IMG/VR virus record: IMGVR_UViG_3300011008_000186
Strand: one strand, 5' to 3'
Origin: a virus
DNA length: 64,000 nt
Every line of letters starts with the position of its first letter. Position 1 is the first letter of the stretch. The notes beneath the pieces were generated by a model that was not told the origin of the DNA, made no database searches, and saw only the letters and a list, made by a program, of their open reading frames with translations. Below are positions 1-18,598 of this stretch, one piece after another. The position numbers were made by a program, and so were the translations under genes.

Positions 1-105
1 GAATATAATCCCCCGGAGATTTTTCAAAGACCGCGCCGATCGCCTAGGGGGTGGGTTTTCGCGAGGGCCTCCCCCGGTGCCACCATATGAGTGGTTCCGA
101 GGAAA
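1..105 (-). ncRNA. GC-rich non-coding island, candidate structured RNA; continues past the left window edge
   Basis: No ORF. GC-rich in an AT-rich genome (CCCCCGG twice, GGGGG/CCCCC complementary runs). Read on the minus strand it shares ordered blocks with 32866..33030: CACCCCC, GGCGC, CTTTGAAA, ATTATATTC. Confidence 0.3.
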
Positions 106-299
106 GCAAACTCTTTTTTTGTTTTTTTTTCACTAAAAATTACTATTTTTTCTATTTTTATTTTGTTTTTTTTTCATTTTTTAACTTTTCGAAGTCAATT
201 AATCTATTTTCAATTAAAAACTAGTTTGGAAATGTATGAATCTAGTCCTTAGTTATTCTATCTTCATTTGTTTTTTTCTTTTAAAAGTAATTGTTCGAC

Positions 300-575
300 A
301 CTCAATACAACTTTTCGTTTAAACTTTTTTGTTTAGAATTCAAAGAAAGTTTGAGAAAACTGAAACTTTAAACTTTTTAAAGTTTTTGTAATAAAGTTTG
401 CAAATTCTTTTAATTATTTTTTTGCTAAAAACTTCGAATAATCATTAAAACTTTTTGTTTTTTCGTTTTTGTAAACAAACTTTTAAAAAAGTTTTCGAAC
501 TTTAAGAAACTTTAAAGCTTTAAAACTTTTTTCTTAAAACTTTAAAACTTTTCCAAAAACTAAACTTTAAGCTTT
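300..575. repeat. Field of AAACTTT / AAAGTTT heptamers (about 12 copies, some as inverted pairs)
   Basis: Examples: aaactttttaaagttt at 371-386 and aaacttttaaaaaagtttt at 478-496, plus many direct AAACTTT copies. Non-coding, downstream of the last leftward gene. Could be an origin, a pac/cos region or a protein-binding array. Confidence 0.6.
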
Positions 576-854
576 TTCGAATTCAATTACTTTTTTGTAA
601 TAAACTTTTTCTGCATTCGGCCCAAAAGCGAAACCATAATCGATGATCTCATCAATTGCTCTTTCGATTTCAGCGCTTTGTTCGTCGTCATCCATTTCAT
701 CAGAAACATTTGCAATTCGATCCAAATAATTACAGGTTCCATAACCTTTTTGTGAATCGAAAGTCAACCACTCATCAAACTGAGTCAAAGGATTAAATGG
801 ATTGTCAGTTGTTGTGATGCCAACAAGACGACGCTTTTTAGTTGCATTAGCCAT
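567..854 (-). CDS. hypothetical protein
   Basis: 95-aa ORF with AAGGAGG 7 nt upstream of the ATG. Acidic stretch DEMDDDEQSAEIE. No domain recognised. Confidence 0.6.
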   Translation of the reverse strand: MANATKKRRLVGITTTDNPFNPLTQFDEWLTFDSQKGYGTCNYLDRIANVSDEMDDDEQSAEIERAIDEIIDYGFAFGPNAEKVYYKKVIEFEKA

Positions 855-867
855 CTTTTTACCTCCT

Positions 868-3711
868 TTACGACTCTTTCAAATATTTTCTGATGGTAGA
901 TTCAGAACGTCCCATAACCTCAGCTATTTCTGATACGGTGTAGCCAGATGCATTGAAGCTGCGGATTCTGTTTACTTCTGAATTACTAAGCGTTAATGTT
1001 TGACGAGGAGTTGCAAGCTGCCTGATTAAAGTCGAGTCAGTGTATTTTAGAATTTGCTGGAGCTTATTCTCACTTATAGCCCCATTCCGAATGGCTTCCC
1101 ACTCCTTGTCGGTTATGTCTATAGACGTACGATGCGCACCAACTTTAGATCGGGCCTTATTTAGTTCCACGGTCCTCAATTTAGATTCCTCCTTAGATGA
1201 TAGTTCCAGGGAGGCGGTCTTTTCTTTTACAGCGGAGGTGGCCATTCTTTGTGCCACCCTCTCTTTGGGGGCATTAGCCTGGGCATCCGCCAGCTTATTC
1301 ATAAGGGAGGTAACTTCATTCGAATATTGGGCCTTAGCCTCTTTATTCACCTTCAAATTGCCCGTATTTATCATTTCCAAACGGGCCTTATTCGCTAAGT
1401 CTTTCATAGCATTAGCATAGTCGGCGTATGCTTTTTCTTTTCTTGTACCGGACGATAATGTGTGTGCGTCATTGGTATCTTCCATACGAGTGGTTGTTGA
1501 AAAAGCAGGGCGAGTTATTGTTTTCTCATCCGTCACCTTTACCGTTTCGCCACTTGAATTCTTATAATAAACACCATCTTTTCTAGTTGAACCGGGGATT
1601 TCTTCTTTTGTTACCGGGTCTATTACATTTGTATATTCGCGCCCCGATTGTTTGTAATAAATCTCTCCAGTTTCCTTATTAATCTGTGGCGAACCCTGGC
1701 GTTCTGGAACTCGCACTTCACTTTTGGCTCCTGATATCAATGTAGATGCGCCAGTACTATAATGACCGGTATAAGGATCTATGTGGCCTTGATAAATATC
1801 TTTTAATTCCTTGATATTATTATCTTTTTCCGATTGAACGTAATCTAGTTTATGCTTTTCTGCATCTATAACAACCATTGAATGTCGAATCGCGGCAGCT
1901 AACTCATCTTCGCTCGCGCCTTTGAGAGTCATATCCGTGATCAAATTTGAAACCATACCCATTTGTTTCTGAGTATTATCTTTTGTCATTATCTTGACTT
2001 TTTTGCCGTCTTCGTTCGTATAGATTGTTTTTCCATTTTTATCAGTAGTTTCAATAGTACTATAAGCAGACTTGGGATCAAATCCAACAAGCCCCCTTAG
2101 AGTATTCTTTGATGATATTCGAACTTTGTCGTTTACTGGTATAACCAGGACCGTGTCACCATCGAAATCTGCTCCAGATAACCGATCAGCAACGTGCTTA
2201 TTTATTCCAACCGCATCCGTTGCTGTACCAATTACTGATTTTCCCTCTTTCTGGTTATTATTAACTGTAAGAATTGGGATCTCGGATATTGATCCATGAG
2301 GATATCTCACAAGTGCTACTTTTTCACCGTTATGGTAATTAGGGGCTGCTATTTCATCGTCTTTCAAACTAGTAACTGGTAATATAACTTGCCAATTCTG
2401 TCTAGGAAGAGCTGCGGCTCTCAAATGCACTGCTGCACTATCGCACTCACTGGCGAATGTCTGCAACATATTCTTTTTTACTGTAACATTTGTCAAATTA
2501 CAAATTTTATCAAACTCATCAGCGCTCTCGGCATATGACAAATTCAGCTGTCTTTTTATCAAACTTTCGGGCTGCTTTGATAAAAACTGTGCGGACAATG
2601 TATCTCTGTAATTATCCCAGTCACCTTCTTCTTTAACTTTATTAATAACGCGAAGATGTTTTTCACCATTCGAGTCAGTCCAATATGACTGACCGCCAGG
2701 ATCTTTTATTAAAGCGCCGAATGGGTTATCATTATCAATAGAACCATCAGCATTCGTCTTCATCGGCTTTAATACTTTAGTCATTGGTGTGCCAACATGT
2801 TTGTTGGTATTAAACAAAACGTCAACGCCATCAGGAAGATCGTCAGAATATACGGCCATTCCTTTCAGATAATGAGTTCCATCGACAGCAATTCGAACCT
2901 GAGCATAATTAGAATTTCCAAGCGAAATATCATCCACGCCTCGACGAAGTTCTATTACTCCATCCTTTTGATCGCCACCTTCTTCAGAATATCTTATTTT
3001 TAACCTTGAAGAATCAAGACTCTTTGGTGGCTGGAACGTTCTATACGTCGCCCCACCGTCATCTGAATGATAATCTGTAACCGACTTAATGTCACCAATA
3101 TGCTGATAAACATATCCTTCAGTATATGTCGGATCGGGCGGAGTAATTACTGTCGTTATAGTCTGCTGCCCTTTGTTTGTCAGCTGCCCGACGCCAATTG
3201 GATAGACATTGTACCCTTCGATGTTTAATATCAATAGTGCTTCTTTCATTGTATCGGAAGAAACACCGAGTTCGGCTTCCACACCCTTACCAACATCCAG
3301 CATGCCTTTTTCTTTAATTTGGGCAGCAAGGAGCTCTGCCGTTTTTTCACCTCTATTTGCATTGTATTCTCGCAATGGATTAAGAAGAGATCTAACCGTA
3401 GATTCATTAACACCCAATTCTCGTCCGATTTCGGTTGCTCCCATTCCTTCGGCCTGCATCTTTTTAGCTAAAGCCACATCTTCTCTACGAATAGCATTCT
3501 TTGCAAGACGCTTCATTGTAGCGAGCTGGGATACTGTCATCTTCTGCTCTTCTGCAAATTCTTTTTCGGTTTTTCCCTCAAGGATCGCCTGTTTGTACGC
3601 ATTCATAAATCCCTTCGGATCATGTTGAAAAGGATTTTCTCCACTTCCATAAGGATATCTTCCGGATCTGTACTTCATGCCATAGTGCATAATTACTCGT
3701 CTGTCGCCCAT
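868..3711 (-). CDS. putative single-subunit two-barrel RNA polymerase (YonO / RdRP-like) with terminal HTH domains
   Basis: 947 aa. The central segment KVALVRYPHGSISEIPILTV...VADRLSGADFDGDTVLVIPV matches the R-x-P ... ADFDGD metal-binding loop of double-psi beta-barrel RNAPs (beta-prime NADFDGD; QDE-1-type LSGGDYDGD). HTH-like segments lie at both ends (GATEIGRELGVNESTVRSLL and GYTVSEIAEVMGRSESTIRKYL). Motif-level call only. Confidence 0.55.
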   Translation of the reverse strand: MGDRRVIMHYGMKYRSGRYPYGSGENPFQHDPKGFMNAYKQAILEGKTEKEFAEEQKMTVSQLATMKRLAKNAIRREDVALAKKMQAEGMGATEIGRELGVNESTVRSLLNPLREYNANRGEKTAELLAAQIKEKGMLDVGKGVEAELGVSSDTMKEALLILNIEGYNVYPIGVGQLTNKGQQTITTVITPPDPTYTEGYVYQHIGDIKSVTDYHSDDGGATYRTFQPPKSLDSSRLKIRYSEEGGDQKDGVIELRRGVDDISLGNSNYAQVRIAVDGTHYLKGMAVYSDDLPDGVDVLFNTNKHVGTPMTKVLKPMKTNADGSIDNDNPFGALIKDPGGQSYWTDSNGEKHLRVINKVKEEGDWDNYRDTLSAQFLSKQPESLIKRQLNLSYAESADEFDKICNLTNVTVKKNMLQTFASECDSAAVHLRAAALPRQNWQVILPVTSLKDDEIAAPNYHNGEKVALVRYPHGSISEIPILTVNNNQKEGKSVIGTATDAVGINKHVADRLSGADFDGDTVLVIPVNDKVRISSKNTLRGLVGFDPKSAYSTIETTDKNGKTIYTNEDGKKVKIMTKDNTQKQMGMVSNLITDMTLKGASEDELAAAIRHSMVVIDAEKHKLDYVQSEKDNNIKELKDIYQGHIDPYTGHYSTGASTLISGAKSEVRVPERQGSPQINKETGEIYYKQSGREYTNVIDPVTKEEIPGSTRKDGVYYKNSSGETVKVTDEKTITRPAFSTTTRMEDTNDAHTLSSGTRKEKAYADYANAMKDLANKARLEMINTGNLKVNKEAKAQYSNEVTSLMNKLADAQANAPKERVAQRMATSAVKEKTASLELSSKEESKLRTVELNKARSKVGAHRTSIDITDKEWEAIRNGAISENKLQQILKYTDSTLIRQLATPRQTLTLSNSEVNRIRSFNASGYTVSEIAEVMGRSESTIRKYLKES

Positions 3712-4271
3712 CAGATATCTCCTTCCTGCTCCATTTGTGAAATGACTTTATCGTTAAATTTAATTTTCTCTATGATTTCCTCAATATCATAGTGATCCGG
3801 TTCATGCAGAAGGATTTCATTCTCCTGATATATACGTAATTCCGCACGAATATCTTCCGGACGAATGTGATAATCCAAACAAAAAAGAGCAGCATATACT
3901 TCAAGCTGCTCCATGTGAACCGGTGAAATGCCAGTTTTCAAATCATTGATTCGCAAAACATTTTTGTTAAAACTTATAGCATCAGTTGTTCCAAAACAGT
4001 TCTCACTAAAATATAATGGAACTTCTGGCGTCATCCGATAGCCAAGAGAATCATTAACATACATATTTAATGTTCTCTGTGATCGTGGAAGTTTTTGTCC
4101 AAGCCTAATTGTCTGCGCTGCCCAATCGTGAAGGATCGTTCCGCGCTCTGCTGCCTTAGAAGTACGATATCTTTCTCTAAGCTTTTCTTCAGTGTAGTTC
4201 AACCAGTACGGACTACTTGGAGCTAGAAACGCGTGTCTTCCGATTAGATTTGAATGATTGTGAAAGTTCAT
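3711..4271 (-). CDS. PD-(D/E)xK nuclease, Cas4/RecB-like exonuclease family
   Basis: 186 aa. Pattern GTILHDW ... TDAISF ... LRINDLKTG ... QLEVYA fits a D...(D/E)xK core. GGAGG lies before the ATG at 4271. Confidence 0.6.
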   Translation of the reverse strand: MNFHNHSNLIGRHAFLAPSSPYWLNYTEEKLRERYRTSKAAERGTILHDWAAQTIRLGQKLPRSQRTLNMYVNDSLGYRMTPEVPLYFSENCFGTTDAISFNKNVLRINDLKTGISPVHMEQLEVYAALFCLDYHIRPEDIRAELRIYQENEILLHEPDHYDIEEIIEKIKFNDKVISQMEQEGDI

Positions 4272-4542
4272 CTAAAATCTCCTCCTTGTTTTCTGGGAAT
4301 ATCAATCTCGAAAACGACATGTCATTCATTTTCGAAATATAATATTCTTGGTTTGGTCTTTTGGTGGCTGTGGATGATTTTTTACATTCAAGAGATGCCC
4401 ATTTGTCTTTATACAAAACAAGTAAATCGGGAATGCCCTGAATATAATTCGGATCGTTTTTAAGAACCATGCATCCTGGGAATCTCTGTTTAAGCTCTTT
4501 AATCAAGCCAGCTTGAAATTCGCTTTCTTTTTTATTTGCCAT
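4213..4542 (-). CDS. VRR-NUC domain nuclease
   Basis: 109 aa. GIPDLLVL ... ASLECKK ... Q is the VRR-NUC type PD-(D/E)xK core. The 3' end overlaps the next gene by 59 nt. Confidence 0.6.
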   Translation of the reverse strand: MANKKESEFQAGLIKELKQRFPGCMVLKNDPNYIQGIPDLLVLYKDKWASLECKKSSTATKRPNQEYYISKMNDMSFSRLIFPENKEEILDELSQSFKSNRKTRVSSSK

Positions 4543-4749
4543 GACGATGCTCCTTAAAAATTTTTACAAAAAAAAAGAGAATAGGTTACACGAATTCTCA
4601 AATATCAATATTCGTGGCATTTATACCCTCTCCTCTCCATAAAAGGATAACTTTTTTTCGCGAATCAAACGTAATCTCAAATTCAAACAAAAAAAAAGAC
4701 AGGATCACAAAATTTGACGAAAACGCCTTAATAAAAACTCGCAAAAATT

Positions 4750-5045
4750 GCCTCTGTCCACTTTGCCCACTTTTTTTGGCATTTTTATTTATATATATAA
4801 AAATTTTTTATATAATAAATAGAGAAAAAAAGTGGACAAGTGGGCAGAAACCTCAAAAAAGCCCGTAAAATCAACGTTTTTTCATGTCCACTTTTTGTCC
4901 ACTTTGCCCACTTTTGCCCAAAAATTTTTTATTTGTGACCACAAAAAAAGCAATTTTTTCAAATAAATGTGTCCACAAAAACGAATAAATGTGGCCACAA
5001 ATATTACTAAAAGTGGACAAAAACGAATAAATGTGGCCACAACTA
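4750..5045. repeat. Iteron field around an AT-rich core (candidate origin or RHH-protein binding array)
   Basis: G(T/C)CCACTTT units at 4756-4775 and 4887-4918, and inverted copies (AAAGTGGAC AAGTGGGC) at 4829-4846. These flank the pure A/T stretch 4781-4825. There are three copies of AAATGTG(T/G)CCACAA, two inside a repeated AAACGAATAAATGTGGCCACAA (4978-4999 and 5022-5043). Confidence 0.65.
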
Positions 5046-5054
5046 TTTTAAATA

Positions 5055-5228
5055 TCAATAATCGGTATAACCATATTTTCTGCATCTTTCATCAACACAA
5101 AAACGTAGAAAATCGGATTTACTGATCTGCAATATGTCACAAACAAAATTTAGTTTTCTCTCCTCGGATTTATTCAATCGAACACGAATTGTCACATCTC
5201 TTGGATCCTTAATTTTAGTTCGTCCCAA
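5055..5228 (-). CDS. ribbon-helix-helix (CopG/Arc/MobC-like) DNA-binding protein
   Basis: 57-codon ORF below the ORF-track cutoff. TTG start 8 nt after GAGAGG. The sequence GRTKIKDPRDVTIRVRLNKSEERKLNFVCDILQISKSDFLRFCVDE fits the strand-helix-helix pattern. It lies directly upstream of the iteron field. Confidence 0.5.
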   Translation of the reverse strand: MGRTKIKDPRDVTIRVRLNKSEERKLNFVCDILQISKSDFLRFCVDERCRKYGYTDY

Positions 5229-5229
5229 T

Positions 5230-5550
5230 TTAATTACCTCTCAATCTTAACACTCCATCAATATCAATATTGCCCTGAGCTACTGGCGGAACATCCATTA
5301 GAAAATCCTCAAGATCGGTCATGTCATACTTCCACATGTTCTTATCAGTGAAAGCATATTCAAGAAGATCTTTTTCATCATAAAGCTTTCCATGTTTTCC
5401 AAGATCTTTAAGCGGGCACCAATCAGGACGGCCTATTACATTACTGCAAACTTTTTCACAAAGAATACAAATTCCATTAGGATTAAACGTGCATTCAATT
5501 CCGTTATTTGGAACTTCGATACTAACACCTTCAAGTAAAATATCAGTCAT
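5230..5550 (-). CDS. hypothetical protein
   Basis: 106-aa ORF with an SD-like AGGAGA upstream. Cys cluster CILCEKVC...WCP. Confidence 0.6.
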   Translation of the reverse strand: MTDILLEGVSIEVPNNGIECTFNPNGICILCEKVCSNVIGRPDWCPLKDLGKHGKLYDEKDLLEYAFTDKNMWKYDMTDLEDFLMDVPPVAQGNIDIDGVLRLRGN

Positions 5551-5568
5551 TTTAATTCTCCTTTCTAA

Positions 5569-5829
5569 TCAAAGCGAAAACATCGTGCGATCGTTTTCAG
5601 GATTATTTATTCCGTTGACATATTTTAAAAGACGCTCCGGATGTATAAGAATATATTGTTCCCCATTTGTCGATTCAATATCAAAACCATGTTTTAATGC
5701 AAAACAAATGAGTTTGAACATTTCAAGATCTGAATCCGAATCATAAGGACACTGACGGTTTATTTCAATACGATAAGCTCCTTTTTTCTGAATAGCATTT
5801 TTGACTTTAGAATATAATGTTTTATTCAT
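5569..5829 (-). CDS. hypothetical protein
   Basis: Start moved to the internal ATG at 5829 (MNKTLYSK), which has AAGGAGA upstream and an ATGA overlap with the stop of the previous gene. Confidence 0.6.
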   Translation of the reverse strand: MNKTLYSKVKNAIQKKGAYRIEINRQCPYDSDSDLEMFKLICFALKHGFDIESTNGEQYILIHPERLLKYVNGINNPENDRTMFSL

Positions 5830-6098
5830 CGCATCTCCTTGAGAGTTTGTACCATTTTCTGTATTGCTGCATTCCATCCAGCCTTATACGATTTTTCCCG
5901 CATTTCATTAAAAAGTCGTTCATTTTCTTTAAGACGGTCTTTAATTTCATATGTAGGTGGAGCGTCTTTAAACTTGCTGTAATTTAGTAATATCAATTCG
6001 TTGATGAAGTCATTTACTATTGCTTCGTCGTTTTTTAAATATCTTTCTTCAAGCTCGCTAAGCTGTGTGCTATCGTCTGTCATCGGTTTCCTCCTCAT
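5826..6098 (-). CDS. hypothetical protein
   Basis: 90-aa ORF translationally coupled to its neighbours. Confidence 0.6.
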   Translation of the reverse strand: MRRKPMTDDSTQLSELEERYLKNDEAIVNDFINELILLNYSKFKDAPPTYEIKDRLKENERLFNEMREKSYKAGWNAAIQKMVQTLKEMR

Positions 6099-6333
6099 TC
6101 TTTTTAATCTTTTCTTTCATTTCTGTTACAACTTCATCAAGCATTTTCGCTGCCTCAGTCATCTTTTCGTGCGCCTCATTAATACCTTTTGTCTGGCGAT
6201 ACAGAACACGATATAAGTTAAATATCCAGAACAAACTAGCAATAAGAAGCCCAAAAATCACCCATTCCGAAATCGACGGACCAGACAACTTATTAACAAA
6301 AACAAAGATTGATGCTAATAATACAAATATCAT
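6070..6333 (-). CDS. small membrane protein
   Basis: 87 aa. Two N-terminal hydrophobic helices (IFVLLASIFVFV, VIFGLLIASLFWIF) followed by a charged helical tail. Confidence 0.6.
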   Translation of the reverse strand: MIFVLLASIFVFVNKLSGPSISEWVIFGLLIASLFWIFNLYRVLYRQTKGINEAHEKMTEAAKMLDEVVTEMKEKIKKNEEETDDRR

Positions 6334-6425
6334 TTATCCTTCACCTCTCATATCCGCTCCGATTGCGGAGCAAAATAGCATATAACTTGGCTGTGCAACC
6401 GTCCATCCATCTCGGTAGCTTGGTA

Positions 6426-6677
6426 TCATTCAGCATCATCTCCTCTCATATCTGCTCCACAATTTGGGCAGAAATTTGTTTTCATTGTTTTGCCACGTGC
6501 ATAGTTTCCGTAGTAGTCATCCGCCACAAATATGAATGGAGCATTTTTTCCGCATTCGGAACAATATGTTTGTTTTGTGTAATCCTCTTCTTTGGTTATC
6601 CACTTTCCGATCTTCCGTTTTGGCTGGGCATGCGGCAATATATCAATTGCATCCTGTTTGCTTATTAAGTCATTCAT
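6426..6677 (-). CDS. zinc-ribbon protein
   Basis: 83 aa with CSECG ... CPNCG. Confidence 0.6.
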   Translation of the reverse strand: MNDLISKQDAIDILPHAQPKRKIGKWITKEEDYTKQTYCSECGKNAPFIFVADDYYGNYARGKTMKTNFCPNCGADMRGDDAE

Positions 6678-6882
6678 CCCTCACCCTCCTATTCCATGCT
6701 TTGATGGCTTTTTCGTCGCTTGAATATCCATAACCAACAACAAAAAACTTCGTTGCGGCCGAGCACTCTTTACAACGACATTGACTTGCTGGCTGTGAAC
6801 AACTAATAATATGTTCTAAAACAGCTTCACTACCGCAAAATGGGCAAGGTCTTAATTCATTTATTTTATTGATCATCATCAT
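6670..6882 (-). CDS. Lar-like restriction-alleviation family protein
   Basis: 70 aa. PCPFCGS ... CRCKECSA ... AIKAWNRR matches the CPFCG / C-x2-C / AWNRR signature of Lar-family proteins. Confidence 0.55.
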   Translation of the reverse strand: MMMINKINELRPCPFCGSEAVLEHIISCSQPASQCRCKECSAATKFFVVGYGYSSDEKAIKAWNRRVRDE

Positions 6883-7211
6883 TCCTCCGCTTCTATTATT
6901 GACTTACAGTTCGATACTTCCACCTCGCTGATACATTTTTGTACAGAAAAATCAAGTGGTATCATTCGGCTTTTAACATCGTCAGCATCAATCAGCTGAC
7001 CATGTGGTGTTGGGACTTCTACCAAAGGACATTTAGGATGCCTTGTATCAATATAATCCAATGTCCTTTTAATATTTAATTTTGATCTCACATTACAAAA
7101 TCCGTTTTCTTTTAGTTCGGTTGCTGCCATGCAATCATAGTCTACCCAACGAAGAAAAGGACATTTAATGCAACCACCTGGCATCTTCATTCCTTTAATC
7201 AGTATGCTCAT
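6879..7211 (-). CDS. hypothetical protein (Cys-rich)
   Basis: 110-aa ORF. The KGMKMPGGCIKCPF N-terminus recurs in Firmicutes phage hypotheticals (from recollection). Confidence 0.6.
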   Translation of the reverse strand: MSILIKGMKMPGGCIKCPFLRWVDYDCMAATELKENGFCNVRSKLNIKRTLDYIDTRHPKCPLVEVPTPHGQLIDADDVKSRMIPLDFSVQKCISEVEVSNCKSIIEAEE

Positions 7212-7704
7212 TTTCTTCCTCCTTCACTTTATATCCAAAAGGAACCTCACCATTAATAATAGACTGCCAATGGGCGATCACATCCGGATGGGCATGTTCA
7301 CGATTTAATAAATTATCTTTTGCTTCTTTTTGTAATTGATCCCATGTGTATTTGGAAATTGTATTAGCAAAACGGCGGTCATATTGAGGATAAAGCATGT
7401 CGTCATAGTCAAGTATTTTTAATCCGGATTTATTTTGAGAGTACTGCCATTGTTTTATGAAATCCCACATAACGAAACTTGCTTGAAATCCAGAAATACC
7501 CGCAATCGAAGCTCCCATCGAACCTGCTCCTAATGCAATCGCAGCAACAGCATGCACAATAGTTCCGTAATCGTGGTTGTAATCATTTAATAAATGATCT
7601 GTAAACGTCTGCAGTTCTTCTTGTTTTTTTATTTTTTTCGCCTGTTTGAACCATGCGGCTTTAATATCAATAAATTCTTTGCTTTCTTCATCAAGTGTTA
7701 TCAT
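7195..7704 (-). CDS. hypothetical protein
   Basis: 169-aa ORF with AGGAGA upstream. Central Gly/Ala-rich hydrophobic segment. Confidence 0.6.
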   Translation of the reverse strand: MITLDEESKEFIDIKAAWFKQAKKIKKQEELQTFTDHLLNDYNHDYGTIVHAVAAIALGAGSMGASIAGISGFQASFVMWDFIKQWQYSQNKSGLKILDYDDMLYPQYDRRFANTISKYTWDQLQKEAKDNLLNREHAHPDVIAHWQSIINGEVPFGYKVKEEENEHTD

Positions 7705-7731
7705 TTTTATTGGATCTCCTTTCTTTTAATT

Positions 7732-7855
7732 AACCTCGGGTAAGGATTTGCACCTTACATGATGCGATGTTTTGCTCAGTTTGACTGGAATCATGTATGC
7801 ATCCATGTCGCATCTACCAGAATCCAATGCGTCTACCTATTCCGCCACCGAGGTT
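7732..7855 (-). ncRNA. tRNA-Leu-like element without a recognisable anticodon arm (copy 1)
   Basis: Minus strand reads AACCTCGG-TG-GCGGAATAGGTAGACGC ... GTAAGG-TGCAAAT-CCTTAC-CCGAGGTT. It has an 8-bp acceptor-like stem, a classic tRNA-Leu D-arm and a 6-bp T-like stem with the non-canonical loop TGCAAAT. The 70-nt central part contains the stem GATGCGA/TCGCATC. Paralogue at 38889..38975. Confidence 0.45.
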
Positions 7856-7860
7856 TGTAA

Positions 7861-8328
7861 TTATTCTTTTATTGAATCTTCTAAATAACTTGAAAAATCT
7901 GAAATATCTTGCTGAATTTCATCAGTTGTAAGTCGGACCGGAACAAGTGTTTGCGGCATGAATTCAATCTCATACGCATATCTGGATACACCAACGCCGG
8001 AAATATCTTCAACTGTATACATCGTCCAATCATTCAGATAAATATAATGTTTCTGATAAATGCCTTTTTCTCTGTCTAATTCGACAAGAACAGCAATTCC
8101 GTCAGTTACATCTTCAATTGAGATTTTGCCTGTCATTTGAAGAATGCATTTATCTGTACGAGTGTTGATCACAGTCACTCTTCTTGTTACATTAAAATTA
8201 TCTGCCTGCTTGCTAATGTTGTAAGAAACCTTAGTTGCTTCTCTGTCACAACCAGCTATAGTTAGCGCAACTAAAACCGGTACCATAATAAAAATTGCAG
8301 ATATCAATACTTTAATTCTATTTTTCAT
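7861..8328 (-). CDS. lipoprotein
   Basis: 155 aa. Signal peptide with lipobox LTIAGC. Confidence 0.65.
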   Translation of the reverse strand: MKNRIKVLISAIFIMVPVLVALTIAGCDREATKVSYNISKQADNFNVTRRVTVINTRTDKCILQMTGKISIEDVTDGIAVLVELDREKGIYQKHYIYLNDWTMYTVEDISGVGVSRYAYEIEFMPQTLVPVRLTTDEIQQDISDFSSYLEDSIKE

Positions 8329-8609
8329 TTGTTTTCCTTTCTTTTTTCATTAAGTTCAGATAGCATTTCTTTTAATATAGATTCGAATTTTATAAAATCC
8401 AGGATCATCAAATCATCGAAAGTTCTTCGGATAATCAAAACGTCTTCCGGTTCATCACCATTACTTCGATCGAGCATTGAAAATATAATATGGCCGTTCG
8501 TCACATACCAACAAATAGTAACATTATTAGCCTGCTCAAATGTGGTAATCATTAACTCGGCCATAGTACTGCCCTCAAAAAAGTTATGACCAAGTCGTAA
8601 TTCATCCAT
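8325..8609 (-). CDS. hypothetical protein
   Basis: Start moved to the ATG at 8609 (MDELRLGH), which is preceded by AAAGGAGG. Confidence 0.55.
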   Translation of the reverse strand: MDELRLGHNFFEGSTMAELMITTFEQANNVTICWYVTNGHIIFSMLDRSNGDEPEDVLIIRRTFDDLMILDFIKFESILKEMLSELNEKRKENK

Positions 8610-8631
8610 AGGCCGTCCTCCTTTTGAAATA

Positions 8632-8874
8632 TCAATATTTGTATCCGATAAGATACTGATTCCAAGTATAGGCATGACCATTATCTAACAAAAATGTATG
8701 CGGATACTTAGCAACAACTACCCCCGATATAGTTTCTTCCACGATGGTTTTTACCACATCGTTTTTTCTATTGTTTCTTTTTATTTTTGTGTACCAGCCG
8801 GTACGAAAGCTAACGCTATCGCCGACATGAGTGTAATCTTTTAATCTCTGAGCTTCTTCTATGCAGTTATACAT
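8632..8874 (-). CDS. hypothetical protein
   Basis: 80-aa ORF in the operon. Confidence 0.55.
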   Translation of the reverse strand: MYNCIEEAQRLKDYTHVGDSVSFRTGWYTKIKRNNRKNDVVKTIVEETISGVVVAKYPHTFLLDNGHAYTWNQYLIGYKY

Positions 8875-8876
8875 TT

Positions 8877-10043
8877 CTAATTCTCCTTTATAAAATCAAT
8901 TTCATTAAATTTTTTCTTTTCATTTAAGGCTTTGGTTATAGCTAAATCCAATCCTGATCTGCTTTTTAAATGGTAGTAATAAAGATCTGTATATGGCGTG
9001 TTCAATCTATCAATTCTTCCCGAGGCCTGGGCCATAACTTTATACGAATAGTTTTGAGAGTAAAATATAATCGTATCTGTTTTTACGCAGTTCCAACCCT
9101 CGCAACCCGCCGTATATTGCGTCAAATACACCCAAAAATCGCCATCAGGAAGCTCGTTGTGTTTATGACCATTCCACTCAGCTATCTCGTATTCTGGGCC
9201 ATAATCCAAGCCTCTGAGAAGTTCCAGTTCGTAATCGAAATTGTAAAATATAATTACTTTTTCTTTTTCGTGGACGATGTCCAGAACAGTATTGAGCCTA
9301 CTTTCATCACTGTTTACAACTTTTCTCAGAGCGTAACAGAACGCAGCAGCGTTTTGGAAAGGCTCGCCTGTATCAGGATCTTGTCTTGTTTTGATCACGT
9401 CTTTATACAGCATTCGATCGTAATCGACATAAATATCTACATGATGCGGAACAGTATGCCGTTTGAAATCCATATCTACAAGAACCGCTCTTCGCAGACG
9501 AATCAGCCGTCCAGTATTTAAATATCTATCAACTTTTGGATAATTTGTGTAACGACTGTATACGACGTGATCTCTTAAAAATTGACTGCGATTTCTAAAA
9601 AAGCCATTAGCAATAAACACTGGAGCATAATCCAGCCATGTATCTCCTGGCGTAGCTGATAAAATTATCCAGTTATTGTTTTTAGCGATTTTTAGAAACG
9701 ATTTGACCCAAACACCTTTCCCGGTTACCTTATCTTCGTCAAATATAAAAAAAGCTCTTGAAACGTCTGTATATTTTTTAATATTGTTCCAAGAGTCTAT
9801 CTTTATTTTGTTGTCGTAATAATTAGTTTCTGGATCGGTGCTTAAACCAAATACTGCCAGCTCGTAATCCCATTCACAATTGTCACGTTTCTGAGCAGTT
9901 GTAATAATATAAAGATCCTGAGGATTGAACATTGGTCGAAAAGTTCCTATACGATTGCCACCATTTTCCTTAAAGTAGTAATATAACGCGGTTCTTGACT
10001 TTCCAGATCCAACTGTTCCTTTTAAAATACAGCCATTCCGCAT
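8877..10043 (-). CDS. SF2 helicase (DEAD/SNF2-like)
   Basis: Motif I GTVGSGKS, motif II IFDEDK, SAT-like LSATPG and motif VI QASGRIDR. The in-frame upstream codons encode LIEDFLREHQIDAVRK (the helicase Q/Ia-type motif) but contain no ATG/GTG/TTG. The true start may be the ATT at 10088, 7 nt after GAGGTG. Confidence 0.7.
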   Translation of the reverse strand: MRNGCILKGTVGSGKSRTALYYYFKENGGNRIGTFRPMFNPQDLYIITTAQKRDNCEWDYELAVFGLSTDPETNYYDNKIKIDSWNNIKKYTDVSRAFFIFDEDKVTGKGVWVKSFLKIAKNNNWIILSATPGDTWLDYAPVFIANGFFRNRSQFLRDHVVYSRYTNYPKVDRYLNTGRLIRLRRAVLVDMDFKRHTVPHHVDIYVDYDRMLYKDVIKTRQDPDTGEPFQNAAAFCYALRKVVNSDESRLNTVLDIVHEKEKVIIFYNFDYELELLRGLDYGPEYEIAEWNGHKHNELPDGDFWVYLTQYTAGCEGWNCVKTDTIIFYSQNYSYKVMAQASGRIDRLNTPYTDLYYYHLKSRSGLDLAITKALNEKKKFNEIDFIKEN

Positions 10044-10099
10044 TTTTCTTACCGCATCTATTTGATGCTCTCTAAGAAAATCCTCAATAAGTCATCACC

Positions 10100-10423
10100 T
10101 CACTTTAATGCATTTTCTATAAGCGCCTCAATGACACTCGTGACTAAGCATAATGCCTGGTCTTCATTAAAGCCGGCCTTAAGATAGCAACTATAATGCG
10201 CGTACAGCGTGTCTGCTGCTTTTTGGAGTTTCGCATTATCTCCTATTTCTGCTGCAGTAGTACCTTGTTCGTCTTTGAAAATATTTTCCCAGAATGTTTT
10301 AAACTCTTCGTCGTTCATTTCTAAAGTCTCCTCTTCTTTATTGTCAATAAATATCAATTTAGCGTCGTCAATCGATAAATAGTCATCATCCAGCGGCGGC
10401 ATCATCGTCCTCCTCCGGATCAT
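10100..10423 (-). CDS. hypothetical acidic protein
   Basis: 107-aa ORF. Confidence 0.55.
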   Translation of the reverse strand: MIRRRTMMPPLDDDYLSIDDAKLIFIDNKEEETLEMNDEEFKTFWENIFKDEQGTTAAEIGDNAKLQKAADTLYAHYSCYLKAGFNEDQALCLVTSVIEALIENALK

Positions 10424-11042
10424 AATTTTCTTCGCATTTAATAAATTTTAATTTCCCGTTTTGCTCTTCATAGATAGCCGTATAACCTTCTTCGTATTCG
10501 CATGTGAACAATAACTCGGAACCGGGGAAGTCTTCACACATCTTTTTGAAAATTGGTTCTGGCGCCCGCCAGGCAGTTGTAAATTCAATTGAATTTTCAT
10601 TCCAACAAACTTCAAAAGCATTCCATTTAGTTCCCCAGTTTTTATTACACCATTCATACCAGGTTTTTGCACCATATTTTTTCCAATTATCGACAAGAGT
10701 TCTTCCTGTTTCATAGTTTGGATACTCACCTGCTTTAATACGCTTCACGATTCTCTTGTATATTTCATCGATCCATTCTGTTGAAAAATGATTACTTAAT
10801 AACAGCATTGTCAATGAATGCTTTTTCATTTCCTCTACTGGTATACTTAATTTTTCAGAGAGGTAATAATAAATATCAAGATCATTCGAACTACCGCTTT
10901 CAACATCAAGAGACTCCGGCATTGGTACAAGCTTATTAAAGTCAAAAGGTCTTTCTTCAGATGCGTAATACTTTTTCTTCATTTTTACAATCGTATCAGG
11001 GTTTGCGGAAATATAATTCCATGTATAATTAGGCATTTTCAA
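10386..11042 (-). CDS. hypothetical protein, possibly DUF1281/Api92-like
   Basis: 218 aa. The WYEWCNKNWGTKWNA motif is typical of that family (from recollection). Confidence 0.45.
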   Translation of the reverse strand: MKMPNYTWNYISANPDTIVKMKKKYYASEERPFDFNKLVPMPESLDVESGSSNDLDIYYYLSEKLSIPVEEMKKHSLTMLLLSNHFSTEWIDEIYKRIVKRIKAGEYPNYETGRTLVDNWKKYGAKTWYEWCNKNWGTKWNAFEVCWNENSIEFTTAWRAPEPIFKKMCEDFPGSELLFTCEYEEGYTAIYEEQNGKLKFIKCEENYDPEEDDDAAAG

Positions 11043-11051
11043 TCTCCTTTT

Positions 11052-11306
11052 CTAATTCATCAATTTTGCGTCCCAGTTTTTCCTTACTCCGTTTTCCTGC
11101 CAATCAGCGCACAGGTCTTCATTAACATTTCGACCAAGGCAACATCCATAATTGGTAAACGGTCTGAATGATCCGTCATAGAAATGTACACATATGCAAC
11201 ATTCTTTCTTTGCAATATTATCATCGGCAATGCGCTTTAAAAGTTTAAGGACGGATAAAGTTTGCTTTTTTCTCGGATCTAAATGTATCGTTAAAACAAT
11301 TTTCAA
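11052..11306 (-). CDS. hypothetical Cys-rich protein
   Basis: 84-aa ORF. Confidence 0.55.
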   Translation of the reverse strand: MKIVLTIHLDPRKKQTLSVLKLLKRIADDNIAKKECCICVHFYDGSFRPFTNYGCCLGRNVNEDLCADWQENGVRKNWDAKLMN

Positions 11307-11332
11307 ATTCCATAATCAAACCTTCCTAATTA

Positions 11333-11381
11333 AAAAAGACCGGCTCCCAAACGAGAACCGGCCCGCAATAAATATAATATT
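11333..11381 (-). terminator. intrinsic terminator, copy A of a perfect 49-bp direct repeat
   Basis: Minus strand: GCCGGTTCTCG TTT GGGAGCCGGTC followed by TTTTT. Identical to 12137..12185. Confidence 0.7.
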
Positions 11382-11390
11382 CAGTTAAAG

Positions 11391-11792
11391 TTAATTTGAT
11401 GGAATGGTCTGACTATCGGATGTCTTTTTTAATATAGCCGTAGCATCCTCGGATAATGGTAAACAGAATCTTCCCTGCTCATCTATATAACATCCTTCCA
11501 TGTAGCCAATAGTCAACTTATTTTCGGCATCAAGTTCCCAATCGCCAATATCCGAGCTTCCTCCGCTTCGAACATAAACCGATCCGCCTTTCTTGATCAC
11601 GAGCATCATGTCGCAGAATCCGGCGTCGTCTCCGATTGCCTCTACTTCTTCAATGGCGTATTCGGATCCCCCGAGAATGAGAATATCTGCCTCCCATGTT
11701 CCATAATACTTTTCGGCTGGATCCGAAGAACCGCATGCTGCAAGACTTAATATCATTGCTAACGACATAATAATACAAATAATTTTTTTCAT
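11391..11792 (-). CDS. lipoprotein (moron-like)
   Basis: 133 aa. Lipobox LSLAAC. Bracketed by the two identical terminators. Confidence 0.7.
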   Translation of the reverse strand: MKKIICIIMSLAMILSLAACGSSDPAEKYYGTWEADILILGGSEYAIEEVEAIGDDAGFCDMMLVIKKGGSVYVRSGGSSDIGDWELDAENKLTIGYMEGCYIDEQGRFCLPLSEDATAILKKTSDSQTIPSN

Positions 11793-11859
11793 TTGCTGTT
11801 ACCTCCTATTTGATGTTGATTATTCTATAACAAGTTTGATTAAATATCAATAGTTCTAT

Positions 11860-12108
11860 TTACCGTTTGTTCATGCGATCGCATTCATCGATTCGTTTAA
11901 GAACTTCTATTGCCGATTCACTTACGCGAAAAGTTACCAATTCGTCATTGTCTAGTGCATCTAATGTCACATTGCAATGATCAAATTCGCCGCGTGGTGT
12001 CAAAATATCTATGGCATGAAGTATTTTGCTGCCATCAACAATCACGTCGGTTGTCTGACTATAAACATCCACTATTCCAGTTAATAAAATATGTTTCATT
12101 GGTTGCAA
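11860..12108 (-). CDS. hypothetical protein
   Basis: 82-aa ORF with AAGGAGA upstream. Confidence 0.55.
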   Translation of the reverse strand: MQPMKHILLTGIVDVYSQTTDVIVDGSKILHAIDILTPRGEFDHCNVTLDALDNDELVTFRVSESAIEVLKRIDECDRMNKR

Positions 12109-12136
12109 ATCTCCTTACTATTTTTTATTCTAGTTC

Positions 12137-12185
12137 AAAAAGACCGGCTCCCAAACGAGAACCGGCCCGCAATAAATATAATATT
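12137..12185 (-). terminator. intrinsic terminator, copy B of the perfect 49-bp direct repeat
   Basis: Identical to 11333..11381. It abuts the stop codon of the SSB-like gene. Confidence 0.7.
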
Positions 12186-12717
12186 ACATGTTAAAAGGAT
12201 CATCGCCAGGAGCAAGATCATCCTCCGGCACTTCTTCGAGAGCATACTTTTCGCTAAGTCTATTCTCCTCGACAACTACATAGATGGTATTTGCATATGC
12301 TTTATATGTTCCATCATCTTTGGTGCTGGGGGAAAGGATAATATCAATGTATTTAATCTGTTTATTATCCAGTGTTCCGACTGCATTCTCACTGATAGGA
12401 ACGGCCTTTCCATTGGACTTGACGATGTATACCTGGGGGGGATTCTTCACAGGGTTACCGTAGCGATCCTTGTATTTGACTGTTACTGGTATAAAATACT
12501 TTCCAGTATCTTCCGGATGATCCTCTCTCGGCTCAAGACGACGAACATCCCAACCAGCATCCTTCATACTAATTGCAAGATCGCTATCTTCAATAAACAT
12601 GCAGAAGTTTCTGTTGCCTGCTACATTGAAATCATGTGCTTTACCTGCAAAGTTAGGACTAGTCTTAGAATACATAATTGTTGCATTTTCGATAGTTACT
12701 GAATTTCTGTTTATCAT
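12184..12717 (-). CDS. putative single-stranded DNA-binding protein
   Basis: 177 aa. Sits directly after the polymerase gene. The acidic C-terminal tail EDDLAPGDDPFNM resembles SSB tails (DDDIPF). Fold not verified. Confidence 0.5.
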   Translation of the reverse strand: MINRNSVTIENATIMYSKTSPNFAGKAHDFNVAGNRNFCMFIEDSDLAISMKDAGWDVRRLEPREDHPEDTGKYFIPVTVKYKDRYGNPVKNPPQVYIVKSNGKAVPISENAVGTLDNKQIKYIDIILSPSTKDDGTYKAYANTIYVVVEENRLSEKYALEEVPEDDLAPGDDPFNM

Positions 12718-12741
12718 TTTATAAACTCCTTAAAAATATAA

Positions 12742-15700
12742 TTATTTGTTGATAAATTCATCTACATCACCATGGACACTTATTGCTTTTCTAGCTTCAA
12801 CTACTAAATAATCATAATAATCTCTTGCTATTGGTGTGTTTAGATTGTTTGCTACATCTGCTTCGAGCCATCTATACGTTTTCTTTATTTTTACAATCTT
12901 TCCGTTATGTTCCTCTTCAAGTTCAATGCTGGATCCGGCCACGGAATAATATTTGCCATCTTTACAACGATACAATAATCCGCCACCGCATCCATCTTTT
13001 ACTGGACAGAAACTACTAACGCGTCCTACAAACTGATAGTTATGACCTTTAGCAATTTGATTTGACAATTGATCGAGATCTTCTCTCAAAATATCATTGT
13101 CGTTTTTGTTAAGTTCTTTTAGTTTTTTGTCATACTCTTTTTCAAGCTCACTCACGTCGGGAAGGAACTCGTTCATGTCCAAATATAATGCTGAATCCCC
13201 AGTAACAGATTTAGTTTCGCACATATCGGAAAACTCGATCGGCTCTTTTGAGAACAATGTTTTAAATACATATGGAACTTGGAATTGAGTTCCGGTTGCA
13301 TCCCATTTACCGTCGTGATAGCAAATGTAAACAGCATTATTCGCAAGACACATTTTGTCATATGTAGCTTCGTGCTCGAAGTTGTATCCATAAAGCTTTC
13401 CATAATCCATAACAAATTGAATTATTTCTGGCGTGGCATTAGGAATCTTAATCGAGTCGGTTTTGATATGGGCTACTGTAAAGCCTCTTTTCTGAACCTG
13501 ATGCTTGAGATTTATCATAAACAAAGCACCACGCTTGGCTACGATGTTGTCTTTGTTTCTTGGATCTTTGAATGGATTCTCGAAACTTGCTGAAGTTAAA
13601 CCATAGACCGAATTAATTGCAATTTTCAAAGCCTGGGCCAACTGTTTTGCTTGATCAGGATCATCCAAATACTTGGCTAATTTACCATTAAATAGCTTCT
13701 TAGCCGATTCAAAGTCCTTATGCTTAATGAAAATTCTGGCATTAACTATATCCTGAAAATTCTGAGTATATTTTCCGAATAACCATTCTGCTATAGCTGA
13801 TGACGGATGCATAGATGCAATATCAAGAAGAGCTACATTATAGTAAATTCCAGGTTCTGCGTATACATATCCGCCTTCGCCAACTTCTTCGCCTCGATAG
13901 AGCGATTTAAATGCCCCTTTTTCGGTCTTTCCATTCTTAGACAATATCTTTACGTATTTGTACTCATAACCCGGAAATACGGGCTTCTCATCGCTTGTGA
14001 AGCATGTATACTCATCATCAAATAAGCAATGATCGGCACCTTCCGCCATGTTACGATAATTGAAACTTGATTGCGGATGCCTTTCGTTACCAAATATAAT
14101 CTTTTGAGTCAGTTTAAATACTGCTTCGGTTGCTAATACATCATTGCAGCAATAACTAGCAACTTCTTCCCATCTGCTTTCCGGAACCGGTTCGTCCCAA
14201 GGAATACCAAGTTCTTTATGAACAATAGGCTGATACGGTTTTGAAATATAAAGTTGAACCGTATCTATAGGGATGTCGAGTTTTTTCGAAATTTCTTCAT
14301 CACTTAGTCCGTCTTTATGGAACTTGTTAGCTTTGTCGTAATCGGACTGACATTTATTATTAAGCTCTATCTCCCATTTCTTAAGACTTTGCTTTTTACT
14401 ACAATAATCATAAATATCAGTGTACGACATGTCGTAAGCCGGACCATAAAATACAGACTTACTTTTATTTAGAATAATAGACTGTGATAATTCAAATAAT
14501 CCCTCAAGGGTTAAATGCTGAATACGACCATAAACAATATGATTATCGTATTTTCGACAGTTAAACCCTACCAGTTTCTTTTTAGAAAATTCCAAACATT
14601 CATCTGGTGTAGGATTGATCATAGTGATCACTGGCATATCAACGTCGTAGTATTTCCAACAGATTACAAAAAGATTTTTAAATGTTTCGACATCATAAAT
14701 TGTTACTGGCTCATTATCGTTTTCAACTTCGGCCACAGACCAATCAGTAATTTCTGAAACCTCTTCTTCGTGATCTTTGGACTTAAATTTAATAGTGTCA
14801 AGTAAGCCGAGACAATAATCTGCATGATGAGTGCTATTTGCTGCAAAATCCCAAATAAGTTCGTACATATCTGATAAATCGTATGAAATATCAGAATTGT
14901 AAGCATCTTGAAAAAGCTTTACGATGAAATCCATACTTGGTTTGGTACCAGGTTGGTATTCTTTGTGCATGGAATTAATTATCAATCGTCGTAAATGCTT
15001 TTCGTTTTGTATTTCCTTGCTGTTTACCACCTGGACCTCCTTTTTCAATGGTAAACCACTACTAATTGTTGCTATCGGCTGATCGTTGCATCGTGTGAGT
15101 TTTCGACGTAAAGCCCTCTTGCCTTCGCATATTTTTATCTCTATGTTTTCCGCATATATGTTATCCAGCTTCGACACGTCTCCTGTATAAATATAATGAA
15201 GATGTATTCCGGCATCGGACTTACTTGTTTCTGCATATGTTTTAGGCCAAGTGGATGCTGCTTTCTTATTTAGTTCAAAACTTTTATTTCCGTTTTCGTC
15301 TTTAAGATCAAAGTCAACAAAAATATGTGCCATCCCATTGATTTCCGGAGCTAAAATATAATGAAGCTTCGTAGTATCAAGATCTGATAATTTTGTTTTT
15401 ACTTTATCCCATGCCGTTCTTGGGCGATCACGTCCATCAGCTAATACCGTGGCATATTGTGCAGTACAGTCCTTTAAAATATCATCAAGAATGCTGTCTC
15501 TTAGTTTCAGATCAAGCCAATCGTTTGGGGAAGTTTTTTCTGAATTTTCACCCTGGGAATTTTCTTCAAAACTTTTATAGTTTTTCTTGAAAAGTCCGGT
15601 TTTAAATCCAGAATAGACTGATCTGGTACGAGCATTGTCGTTTGAACGAATATCAAATTTTTCGAAATAATTTTTCAATTCTTCTTTGAACGCTCTTTTA

Positions 15701-16896: not shown

Positions 16897-16902
16897 ATCG
16901 CT

Positions 16903-18483: not shown

Positions 18484-18499
18484 AATTAGATCTCCTTAT

Positions 18500-18570: not shown

Positions 18571-18598
18571 TTCAGTTCCGCTCCCGAACCCGGCGATA

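Follow-up and report, generated by a model that had tools for sequence, protein, structure and literature searches.

All cellular genomes are transcribed by an enzyme whose simplest relatives are single-chain RNA polymerases (RNAPs) in which one polypeptide carries two beta-barrels, and in the literature covered the characterised phage representatives of these are YonO, crAss gp66, and P23-45 gp64 and gp96 (PMC5467207, PMC10770324). YonO was identified as the DNA-dependent RNAP of the late genes of phage SPbeta, the question of promoter recognition being left open (Forrest et al. 2017; PMC5467207); gp64 of phage P23-45 and gp66 of phi14:2 (a crAss-like phage), both two-barrel RNAPs made of one polypeptide and with solved structures, have been placed in a clade formed by single-subunit RNAPs from phages and plasmids together with the eukaryotic RNA interference (RNAi) polymerases (PMC10770324). 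QDE-1 of Neurospora, an enzyme involved in RNA silencing (PDB entries 2J7N and 7Y7S), is likewise a single chain with two barrels and synthesises RNA on single-stranded DNA (ssDNA; title of PDB entry 7y7s; PMC10770324). The subject of the present work is a gene of 947 codons on the minus strand of IMG/VR virus record IMGVR_UViG_3300011008_000186, at positions 868-3711 of the 64,000-nucleotide stretch that was analysed and that is called the window hereafter; as judged from its sequence and from a structural model, this gene very probably encodes a single-chain RNAP which shares the catalytic core of the cellular RNAPs and carries DNA-binding domains at both ends.

The family to which the protein belongs has been noticed before. 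YonO-like proteins were divided by Ruprich-Robert and Thuriaux in 2010 into five distant families, one of which is typified by phage 1706, and on the basis of eight invariant residues they were considered to be genuine nucleotide polymerases of unknown role (PMC2919709). Koert et al. (2021) described this protein as a signature gene of a supercluster of actinophages and of Lactococcus and Faecalibacterium phages, reported an HHpred match of 95.7% to PF05183, helix-turn-helix (HTH) domains at both termini and a DxDGD loop, and concluded that it "could potentially have RNA polymerase activity" (bioRxiv 10.1101/842583). The gene discussed here is a divergent further member of the family predicted in silico in 2010 and 2021, and the locus is not new in kind; indeed, the presence of HTH domains at both ends, which a first, sequence-only reading of this DNA had presented as a novelty, is an architecture already reported by Koert et al. 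(bioRxiv 10.1101/842583). The interest of the locus rests on the family itself, which is large, often mis-annotated and experimentally untouched, and to which the window adds one divergent member rather than a new kind of system.

The Catalytic Core

The gene and the parts of its core are located as follows.

868-3711, minus strand: polymerase candidate gene, 947 aa (open reading frame, ORF; phrog_4291, 1706-type family; AlphaFold2 model and Foldseek)
2629-3003, minus strand: first (beta-like) barrel, residues 237-361 (AlphaFold2 strand pattern, invariant columns)
2134-2397, minus strand: second (beta'-like) barrel, residues 439-526, with R469-Y-P471-H472 and the catalytic loop (AlphaFold2, invariant columns)
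2155-2175, minus strand: aspartate triad loop G-A-D-F-D-G-D, metal-binding, residues 513-519 (invariant in both alignments described below)
1792-1983, minus strand: highly conserved helices that follow the catalytic loop (MGxxSNLITDMT..., HSMVVIDAEKHKLDY), residues 577-640

The ORF and the two peptides from which a polymerase had been suspected are genuine: KVALVRYPHGSISEIPILTV corresponds to residues 464-483 and VADRLSGADFDGDTVLVIPV to residues 507-526 of the product, and the segment between them (NNNQKEGKSVIGTATDAVGINKH) has 23 residues instead of the 34 counted by the sequence-only reading. The catalytic residues are not chance matches; indeed, R469, P471, H472, D515, F516, D517, G518 and D519 are invariant both among 66 metagenomic homologs and in an alignment of 16 sequences, which comprises phages of Lactococcus, Faecalibacterium, Streptomyces, Arthrobacter and Gordonia, one oral phage and gut metagenomes, the host phyla represented being Actinobacteria and Firmicutes. 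In the superfamily, the beta'-type loop (N/G)AD(F/Y)DGD carries three metal-binding aspartates, and a strand with an invariant Arg and Pro (R-x-P) lies about 35-45 residues ahead of them. Here, the distance from R469 to D515 is 46 residues, as against 45 in QDE-1 (R962 to D1007; PMC2919709).

A model of the polymerase was built with AlphaFold2 from the 66-sequence metagenomic alignment (mean pLDDT 83.3, pTM 0.75). When this model was compared by Foldseek with the PDB, a check for an RNAP fold that the sequence-only reading had itself proposed, the sole significant matches were to QDE-1 (7y7s_B, E 8.8e-8; 2j7n_A, E 1.2e-7; probability 1.0, about 655 aligned columns), while nearly all of the next 50 or so were the largest subunits of multisubunit RNAPs, of the beta'/Rpb1 type (among them Pol IV, Rpb1 of Pol II, bacterial beta', and those of African swine fever virus and vaccinia). 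A viral structure library returned phage proteins named RNA-dependent RNA polymerase (RdRP), together with local matches to double-psi beta-barrels (DPBBs) of the RlpA type. The candidate single-chain two-barrel RNAP is thus upheld by the fold match to QDE-1, by the invariant RxP and DFDGD residues, and by the HTH domains at both ends, described below. Single-sequence and family-profile searches of PDB chains found HTH proteins only and no polymerase, the core itself returned no structure or profile of an HTH family besides the terminal modules of its own chain, and NCBIfam holds no model for the polymerase core or for its phrog_4303 partner.

The secondary structure of the model contains two beta-rich blocks (residues 237-361 and 439-526) with a helical hairpin between them and two long conserved helices after them, and the blocks are read as two double-psi beta-barrel regions lying side by side in one chain. 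In the superfamily, the set of active-site residues supplied by the beta-type barrel consists of one Asp and two basic residues (D709, R738 and K743 in QDE-1; D837, K979 and K987 in Rpb2). The residues of the first block that are invariant in the 16-sequence alignment are D250, R256, D261, R273, K283-G284, D297, N301-K304 and K315; among them, D250, R273 and K283 are candidate counterparts of D709, R738 and K743 of QDE-1, and on inspection of the alignment the succession of D250, R273 and K283-G284, then a hydrophobic strand, resembles the order found in YonO (R266/K271-G272). The helices that follow the catalytic loop have 27 of their 64 columns invariant (mean identity 0.80) and, by analogy, residues 577-640 are a candidate bridge-helix region.

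The Pfam RdRP family PF05183 matches residues 505-622 with 16.1 bits (E 0.0046), below its gathering threshold of 23.8 bits; nine of the 16 family members match it at E 0.01 or better (best 1.1e-4), all of them sub-threshold, and at the level of sequence the link is one of superfamily kinship and not of membership.

The Terminal Modules

On its N-terminal side the core has a block of about 230 residues, composed of HTH motifs and an alpha/beta domain, and on its C-terminal side one of about 270 residues, in which coiled helices are followed by an HTH of the sigma-region-4/resolvase type.

3631-3693, minus strand: N-terminal motif H-Y-G-x4-S-G-R-Y-P-x-G-S-G, residues 7-27, invariant across host phyla
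3307-3624, minus strand: N-terminal helical DNA-binding region, residues 30-135, with HTH at about 46-70 and 88-110
3037-3306, minus strand: alpha/beta domain with two helices and a beta hairpin, residues 136-225 (AlphaFold2 secondary structure)
874-1134, minus strand: C-terminal pair of three-helix modules, residues 860-946, the last being the sigma-region-4/resolvase-type HTH

The earlier claim of HTH domains at both ends holds. At the N-terminus, Pfam HTH_IclR matches residues 86-115 (E 5e-5), the DNA-binding protein family phrog_664 matches residues 40-131, and the family profile matches an HTH of the lambda cI type at profile positions 73-136, with R107 invariant; at the C-terminus, HTH_23, Sigma70_r4_2 and HTH_38 match residues 908-945 (E about 1e-9) and HTH_7, a resolvase domain, is found with E 9e-5. 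HTH_23 and Sigma70_r4_2 are matched in all 16 aligned family members. In the model, residues 136-225 are possibly winged-helix-like.

The N-terminal motif, in which H9, G11, S16-P20 and G22-G24 are invariant in the 16-sequence alignment, has the highest mean column identity of all regions of the polymerase (0.83) and is predicted to be disordered (pLDDT below 50); no known counterpart of HYG-x4-SGRYPxGSG was found.

The HTH domains are the sole parts of the polymerase above Pfam thresholds, and most of the listed actinophage records annotate an HTH protein, from which it might be supposed that the product is only a DNA-binding regulator whose polymerase-like core is no longer catalytic. This is barely conceivable: across phyla there is no variation at the catalytic residues or at some 90 further positions of the core, and by column identity conservation is best in the barrels and in the helices that come next, the HTH modules being markedly less conserved, which is the opposite of decay and points to a working enzyme with a drifting DNA specificity rather than to a regulator with a dead core.

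Family Placement and Comparison with Known Enzymes

The family phrog_4291 ("RNA-dependent RNA polymerase") matches residues 4-946 at 1112 bits. A full-length comparison (about 1000 columns) with orf75 of Lactococcus phage 1706 gives 37% identity (E 0), and the orf75 family shares with the protein the three-part architecture, the HTH domains at both ends, the location at the right genome end and the phrog_4303 gene that follows. In Faecalibacterium phage FP_oengus, the protein recorded as a putative RNA polymerase (AUV56548) is 45% identical; in the phage collection searched, the closest sequenced homolog has at most 46% identity, and no phage nearly identical to window positions 1-20000 is present.

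The family is large. A tblastn search found 250 phage records, with a query coverage of 80% or more in 249 (Arthrobacter 95, Gordonia 55, Streptomyces 54, Lactococcus 13, and others), and the relatives in a large protein database number more than 8,000. A search of 1.84 billion cluster representatives with the core only gave 1,211 matches at E <=1e-3 and 673 at E <=1e-30, the latter figure being a lower bound on the number of family clusters at 50% identity; among the best 150 of these core-only matches most proteins have about 860-1,080 aa with the core beginning at about residue 220-300, about a dozen being shorter, and the three-part architecture seems, from these sequences, to be typical of the 1706-type family. 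Since the family is large, has its candidate DNA-recognition modules within the one chain and occurs in phages of easily grown hosts (Lactococcus, Streptomyces, Arthrobacter and Gordonia), it offers a good experimental entry point.

The names under which these proteins are deposited are of two kinds, most of the listed actinophage records being called "helix-turn-helix DNA-binding" protein and others "RNA-dependent RNA polymerase", and both are probably misleading. Taken literally, the second would mean an enzyme that copies or amplifies phage or host RNAs, and the PHROG and RefSeq names, the weak Pfam RdRP match and the position of QDE-1 as nearest structure all agree with it. The name is inherited from Pfam PF05183, however, and YonO carries the same label in some database records and yet is DNA-dependent; several HTH modules of the kind that binds double-stranded DNA (dsDNA) are hard to square with an RNA template, and RNA-based regulation is not known for these phages, so that an RdRP proper is very improbable.

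Membership in the YonO group, to which the sequence-only reading had assigned the protein, was tried and abandoned. By BLASTP no relevant segment does better than E 1.7, the two proteins fall in separate PHROGs (8308 for YonO, 4291 here), and when the family profiles are compared by hhalign (E 0.051, probability 1%) the alignment is confined to RxPH, DxDGD and the GxxSNxIT helix that comes next. The YonO protein of SPbeta (839 aa, L003:11356-13875) has no Pfam match, HTH domains included, at E 0.01 or better, and its homologs share an invariant C-terminal cluster of four cysteines (C799, C802, C816 and C819), whereas the polymerase of the window has two cysteines (C404 and C423) and ends in an HTH; as far as sequence comparison goes, the two are kin at the superfamily level only. 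QDE-1, the nearest structure, is eukaryotic and differs from the polymerase by an identity of only 11-12% and a global TM-score of 0.27.

The sequence-only reading had counted YonO and the crAss/N4-type virion enzymes as the sole phage relatives described. The N4 virion RNAP is a T7-like enzyme and not a two-barrel one. To the two-barrel phage enzymes, gp64 and gp96 of P23-45 have to be added (PMC10770324). The structures of gp64 and gp66 (6VR4 included) are absent among the 50 PDB matches listed for the polymerase, and term searches of the papers on gp64 and gp66 gave no mention of helix-turn-helix domains. The gp66 enzyme is a virion protein with a DFDxD motif and lies within a much larger polypeptide; no proteomic data on the presence of the 1706-type family in virions were found in the literature; the function of the family is not discussed in the Arthrobacter phage paper or in the Scarif paper.

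The Terminal Cassette and the cos End

The polymerase gene is the third of a conserved series, in the order VRR-Nuc, Cas4-like exonuclease, RNAP, small acidic protein, and then cos.

4213-4542, minus strand: small endonuclease, first cassette gene (phrog_93; the relatives' gene at this place is annotated VRR-Nuc)
3711-4271, minus strand: Cas4/RecB-like PD-(D/E)XK exonuclease (phrog_3953, E 1e-72; DUF2800, PDDEXK_1; synteny)
567-854, minus strand: 95-aa acidic protein, pI 4.4 (phrog_4303), directly after the polymerase gene
111-566: A/T-rich non-coding tail of about 460 bp that separates the cassette from cos and contains AAAGTTT/AAACTTT repeats
28-85: GC-rich cos-like block (GGGGGAGG..CTCGCGAAAA..CCACCCCC..GCGATCGGCGCGGTCT), conserved in relatives

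In the relatives examined the exonuclease gene is directly upstream of the polymerase gene, with a helicase gene a bit further upstream, except in the 1706-like phages, where exonuclease and polymerase genes are not adjacent. As the sequence-only reading had it, the polymerase gene is the last large one of the leftward array, only the 95-aa ORF and non-coding DNA lying beyond. The phrog_4303 gene follows that of the polymerase in all genomes examined, and matches to this family were recorded for the window itself and for eight relatives, which come from four host genera and from metagenomes; its product is modelled by AlphaFold2 with a pLDDT of 90.9, has no fold match in the PDB (best E 0.36) and no Pfam match, and is a candidate accessory factor of the polymerase.

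In linear records the cassette lies 55-500 bp from the right genome end, and three independent metagenome contigs end 200-830 bp past the small ORF. The cos-like block, evidently cos and conserved from actinophages to Lactococcus phages, stands at the very end of the records of Nason, Perkunas, PherryCruz, DrGrey, 1706 and CHPC971, whereas it has an internal position in the permuted records of FP_oengus and D_HF4_2, in which the sequence after it matches window positions 27-1 and in which the terminase and structural genes come after cassette and cos. By this comparison, positions 1-27 of the window are probably the opposite genome end, the window running 27 nt across the cos junction. In the A/T-rich tail, AAAGTTT/AAACTTT occurs 14 times within 600 bp, where fewer than 0.4 copies would be expected, and AAAAGTTT repeats are present in the relative L011 too.

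The Iteron Array

4755-5019: AAGTGGRCA iterons, eight copies in both orientations around an AT-rich tract, upstream of the cassette

Eight of the nine copies of AAGTGGRCA in the window fall within this interval, against 0.65 expected in the whole window, and similar arrays occupy the same place in L011, FP_oengus, D_HF4_2 and Nason, other host phyla included; in the 1706-like phages, despite the altered gene order, the array is directly upstream of the RNAP gene. From its sequence it is likely to be a replication origin or a protein-binding array.

T7 RNAP acts at the primary origin of T7, and by analogy the HTH modules might bind the neighbouring iterons while the core makes an RNA that primes or activates an origin. 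Such a replication role would suit the constant association of the gene in one module with those for a helicase, VRR-Nuc and the Cas4-like exonuclease, the succession of iterons, AT-rich tract and iterons just upstream of the cassette, retained before the RNAP gene in the 1706-like phages, and the ability of QDE-1, the closest fold relative, to make RNA on ssDNA (7y7s title; PMC10770324). The phage, however, has its own primase-polymerase with a D5-like helicase, of a type which usually recognises the origin, and the array could equally regulate the cassette promoter; we hold this role to be distinctly unlikely.

The Repeated Promoter-Like Element

The motifs that the sequence-only reading had described as repeated and promoter-like are indeed present in the genome. 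They have the form TCGCGAAA-N9-CCTTTTATG, the downstream part being given also as CCTTATATG (TCGCGAAA-N9-CCTTATATG); a version of the pattern with an 11-nt spacing had no matches in the window, whereas 9 nt fits.

4638-4663, minus strand: element before the cassette, sequence TCGCGAAAAAAAGTTATCCTTTTATGGAGAGGAGAGG
4638-4663, 20818-20843, 22060-22085, 27107-27132, 27597-27622 and 30578-30603, minus strand: copies of TCGCGAAA-N9-CYTWWTAYG
30991-31016, 31420-31445, 32484-32509, 32825-32850 and 33037-33062, minus strand: remaining copies of the same pattern
25069-26055, minus strand: Xre-sigma4-alphaCTD fusion gene (Pfam domains)

The window has 11 copies of TCGCGAAA-N9-CYTWWTAYG, all on the coding strand, against 0.19 expected: ten are found at 20.8-33.1 kb before small genes and one before the cassette, with none in the structural region at 36-64 kb. 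Most of them are immediately preceded by a hairpin that, with its T-run, looks like a terminator, and a ribosome-binding site and a start codon follow 30-90 nt further on; within the element TTCGCGAA is a perfect palindrome. A simple sigma-70 scan called none of the 11 copies. The element before the cassette is conserved in relatives whose RNAPs are 63-75% identical, and in FP_oengus, D_HF4_2 and actinophages it is still recognisable as CC-TwTwAT-GG with a purine run. In D_HF4_2, whose RNAP is 44% identical, a hairpin is followed by CGCAAAAA, about 10 nt and CCTATAATGAGAA, with six or seven copies before small genes and one before the cassette; PherryCruz has related elements of partly the same architecture.

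As the reader of these elements, host sigma-A is plausible in those cases in which a G-rich discriminator comes after a TATAAT hexamer; in the window, the majority hexamer TTATAT is without the A at the -11 position of sigma-A promoters, and the upstream block lies 9 nt off, too close for a -35 element, which leaves the phage polymerase a candidate. Its HTH modules might thus read TCGC(G/A)AAA-N9-CC-TwwwAT-G and the enzyme transcribe, without sigma, the small early and middle genes as well as its own cassette, in an auto-activating manner. The 11 copies at fixed spacing on the coding strand only, after a hairpin and before a start, are in keeping with this, as are the failure of the sigma-70 scan, a hexamer and a 9-nt spacing atypical for sigma-A, and the sharing of the design by D_HF4_2 and partly by PherryCruz, where the Xre-sigma4-alphaCTD fusion is absent. 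The TATAAT and G-rich discriminator of D_HF4_2 and Nason, on the other hand, suit host sigma-A; the elements precede genes of early type, normally served by the host enzyme; and the polymerase gene is itself behind such an element, a bootstrap problem for which read-through or virion delivery would be needed. On these grounds we regard self-reading as doubtful.

The fusion protein (328 aa), unusual in its make-up and the only other odd transcription protein of the window, joins an Xre-type HTH (HTH_3, residues 10-64), a sigma-70 region 4 (residues 153-202, E 3e-16) and the C-terminal domain (CTD) of the RNAP alpha subunit (residues 252-317, E 9e-17), and from this domain content it looks as if made to contact or mimic parts of the host RNAP. 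Considered as a family-wide reader of the motif, it was rejected, since neither D_HF4_2 nor PherryCruz, both complete genomes, encodes it.

A family of near-identical hairpins (minus-strand sequence GAGCAAGACTTTAAACTGCTC and then a T-run) is found at 24601-24644, 26884-26927, 28699-28742, 30346-30389, 31015-31058 and 32505-32548; they look like intrinsic terminators, reused among the small early genes.

The Proposed Role of the Polymerase

Taking together sequence, model and analogy with the known enzymes, we favour as reasonably probable the view that the product is a nucleotide polymerase of the single-chain two-barrel superfamily, and most probably a DNA-dependent RNAP that transcribes part of the phage genome. 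The cassette would be expressed along with the early and replication genes; the HTH modules would then tether or target the polymerase to specific dsDNA sites, no separate sigma-like factor being needed, and the enzyme would go on to transcribe the late structural genes across the joined cos ends. The late genes are favoured as the target because the cassette is behind an element of early type and, when the genome is circular, immediately upstream of cos and of the structural genes, and because the layout of SPbeta, in which yonO is followed by a small gene (yonN), a non-coding gap and the YonO-dependent late operon, is analogous. A primase-polymerase with a D5-like helicase domain is also encoded (phrog_4210, DUF5906), so that a separate primase is not needed.

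Several points weigh against this assignment. In the comparison of the first barrel by hhalign the match is not significant and pairs other, non-conserved residues than the expected Asp, Arg and Lys; whether the template is DNA or RNA is not readable from sequence, and QDE-1, the nearest structure, uses both; and no biochemical study of the 1706-type family was found in open-access papers and bioRxiv, while subscription journals could hold one. As regards the late genes, no late-promoter candidate was identified, and in some actinophages the small ORF and the genome end are only about 55 bp apart; the place where the late operon begins in this phage falls outside the sequence seen. The gene lies in a replication and recombination module beside an origin-like iteron array, which fits a replication role too, and the repeated elements may simply be host sigma-A promoters, the hexamer of D_HF4_2 and Nason being a perfect TATAAT with the G-rich discriminator that suits this factor.

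A bolder form of the favoured DNA-dependent RNAP can be envisaged, and we put it forward as a tentative and rather unlikely one: the enzyme would be sigma-independent, its HTH modules reading either promoters of the conserved TCGC(G/A)AAA-N9-CC-TwwwAT-G class or a cos-proximal site, the N-terminal motif serving as an initiation or docking peptide and the phrog_4303 protein as a cofactor, and it might also fire the iteron origin, thereby coupling late transcription to replication. If true, the enzyme would be the first among two-barrel RNAPs to have sequence-specific promoter recognition built in, and possibly a minimal orthogonal expression system based on a fold other than that of T7 RNAP.

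Other Features of the Window

The sole large gene on the plus strand is that of a tyrosine integrase (phrog_1, 34486-35535), on account of which the phage looks temperate, unlike most sequenced relatives; beside it, the 515-bp gap at 33971-34485, in the switch region, contains the two strongest sigma-70-like promoter matches of the minus strand, both of canonical type. The structural region includes a minus-strand ORF of 2613 aa (56147-63988), probably of tail or tape-measure type, with three 192-nt tandem repeats at 57721-58296; the assembly index has no record of the exact product of this ORF.

Among the small early genes, a tRNA-Gln with anticodon TTG is encoded at 28637-28710 on the minus strand (ARAGORN and Rfam). 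A 15-nt unit is repeated in tandem about 17 times at 28904-29275, inside the ORF at 28750-29265, giving rise to a five-residue protein repeat. An exact duplication of 99 nt links positions 14013-14111, inside the DNA polymerase/primase gene (12742-16896), with positions 23121-23219 at the 5' end of the ORF at 22735-23220. Finally, two 56-nt copies, 96% identical, at 11326-11381 and 12130-12185, contain a GC-rich hairpin (GACCGGCTC...GAGAACCGGCC) and flank small genes of the replication region.

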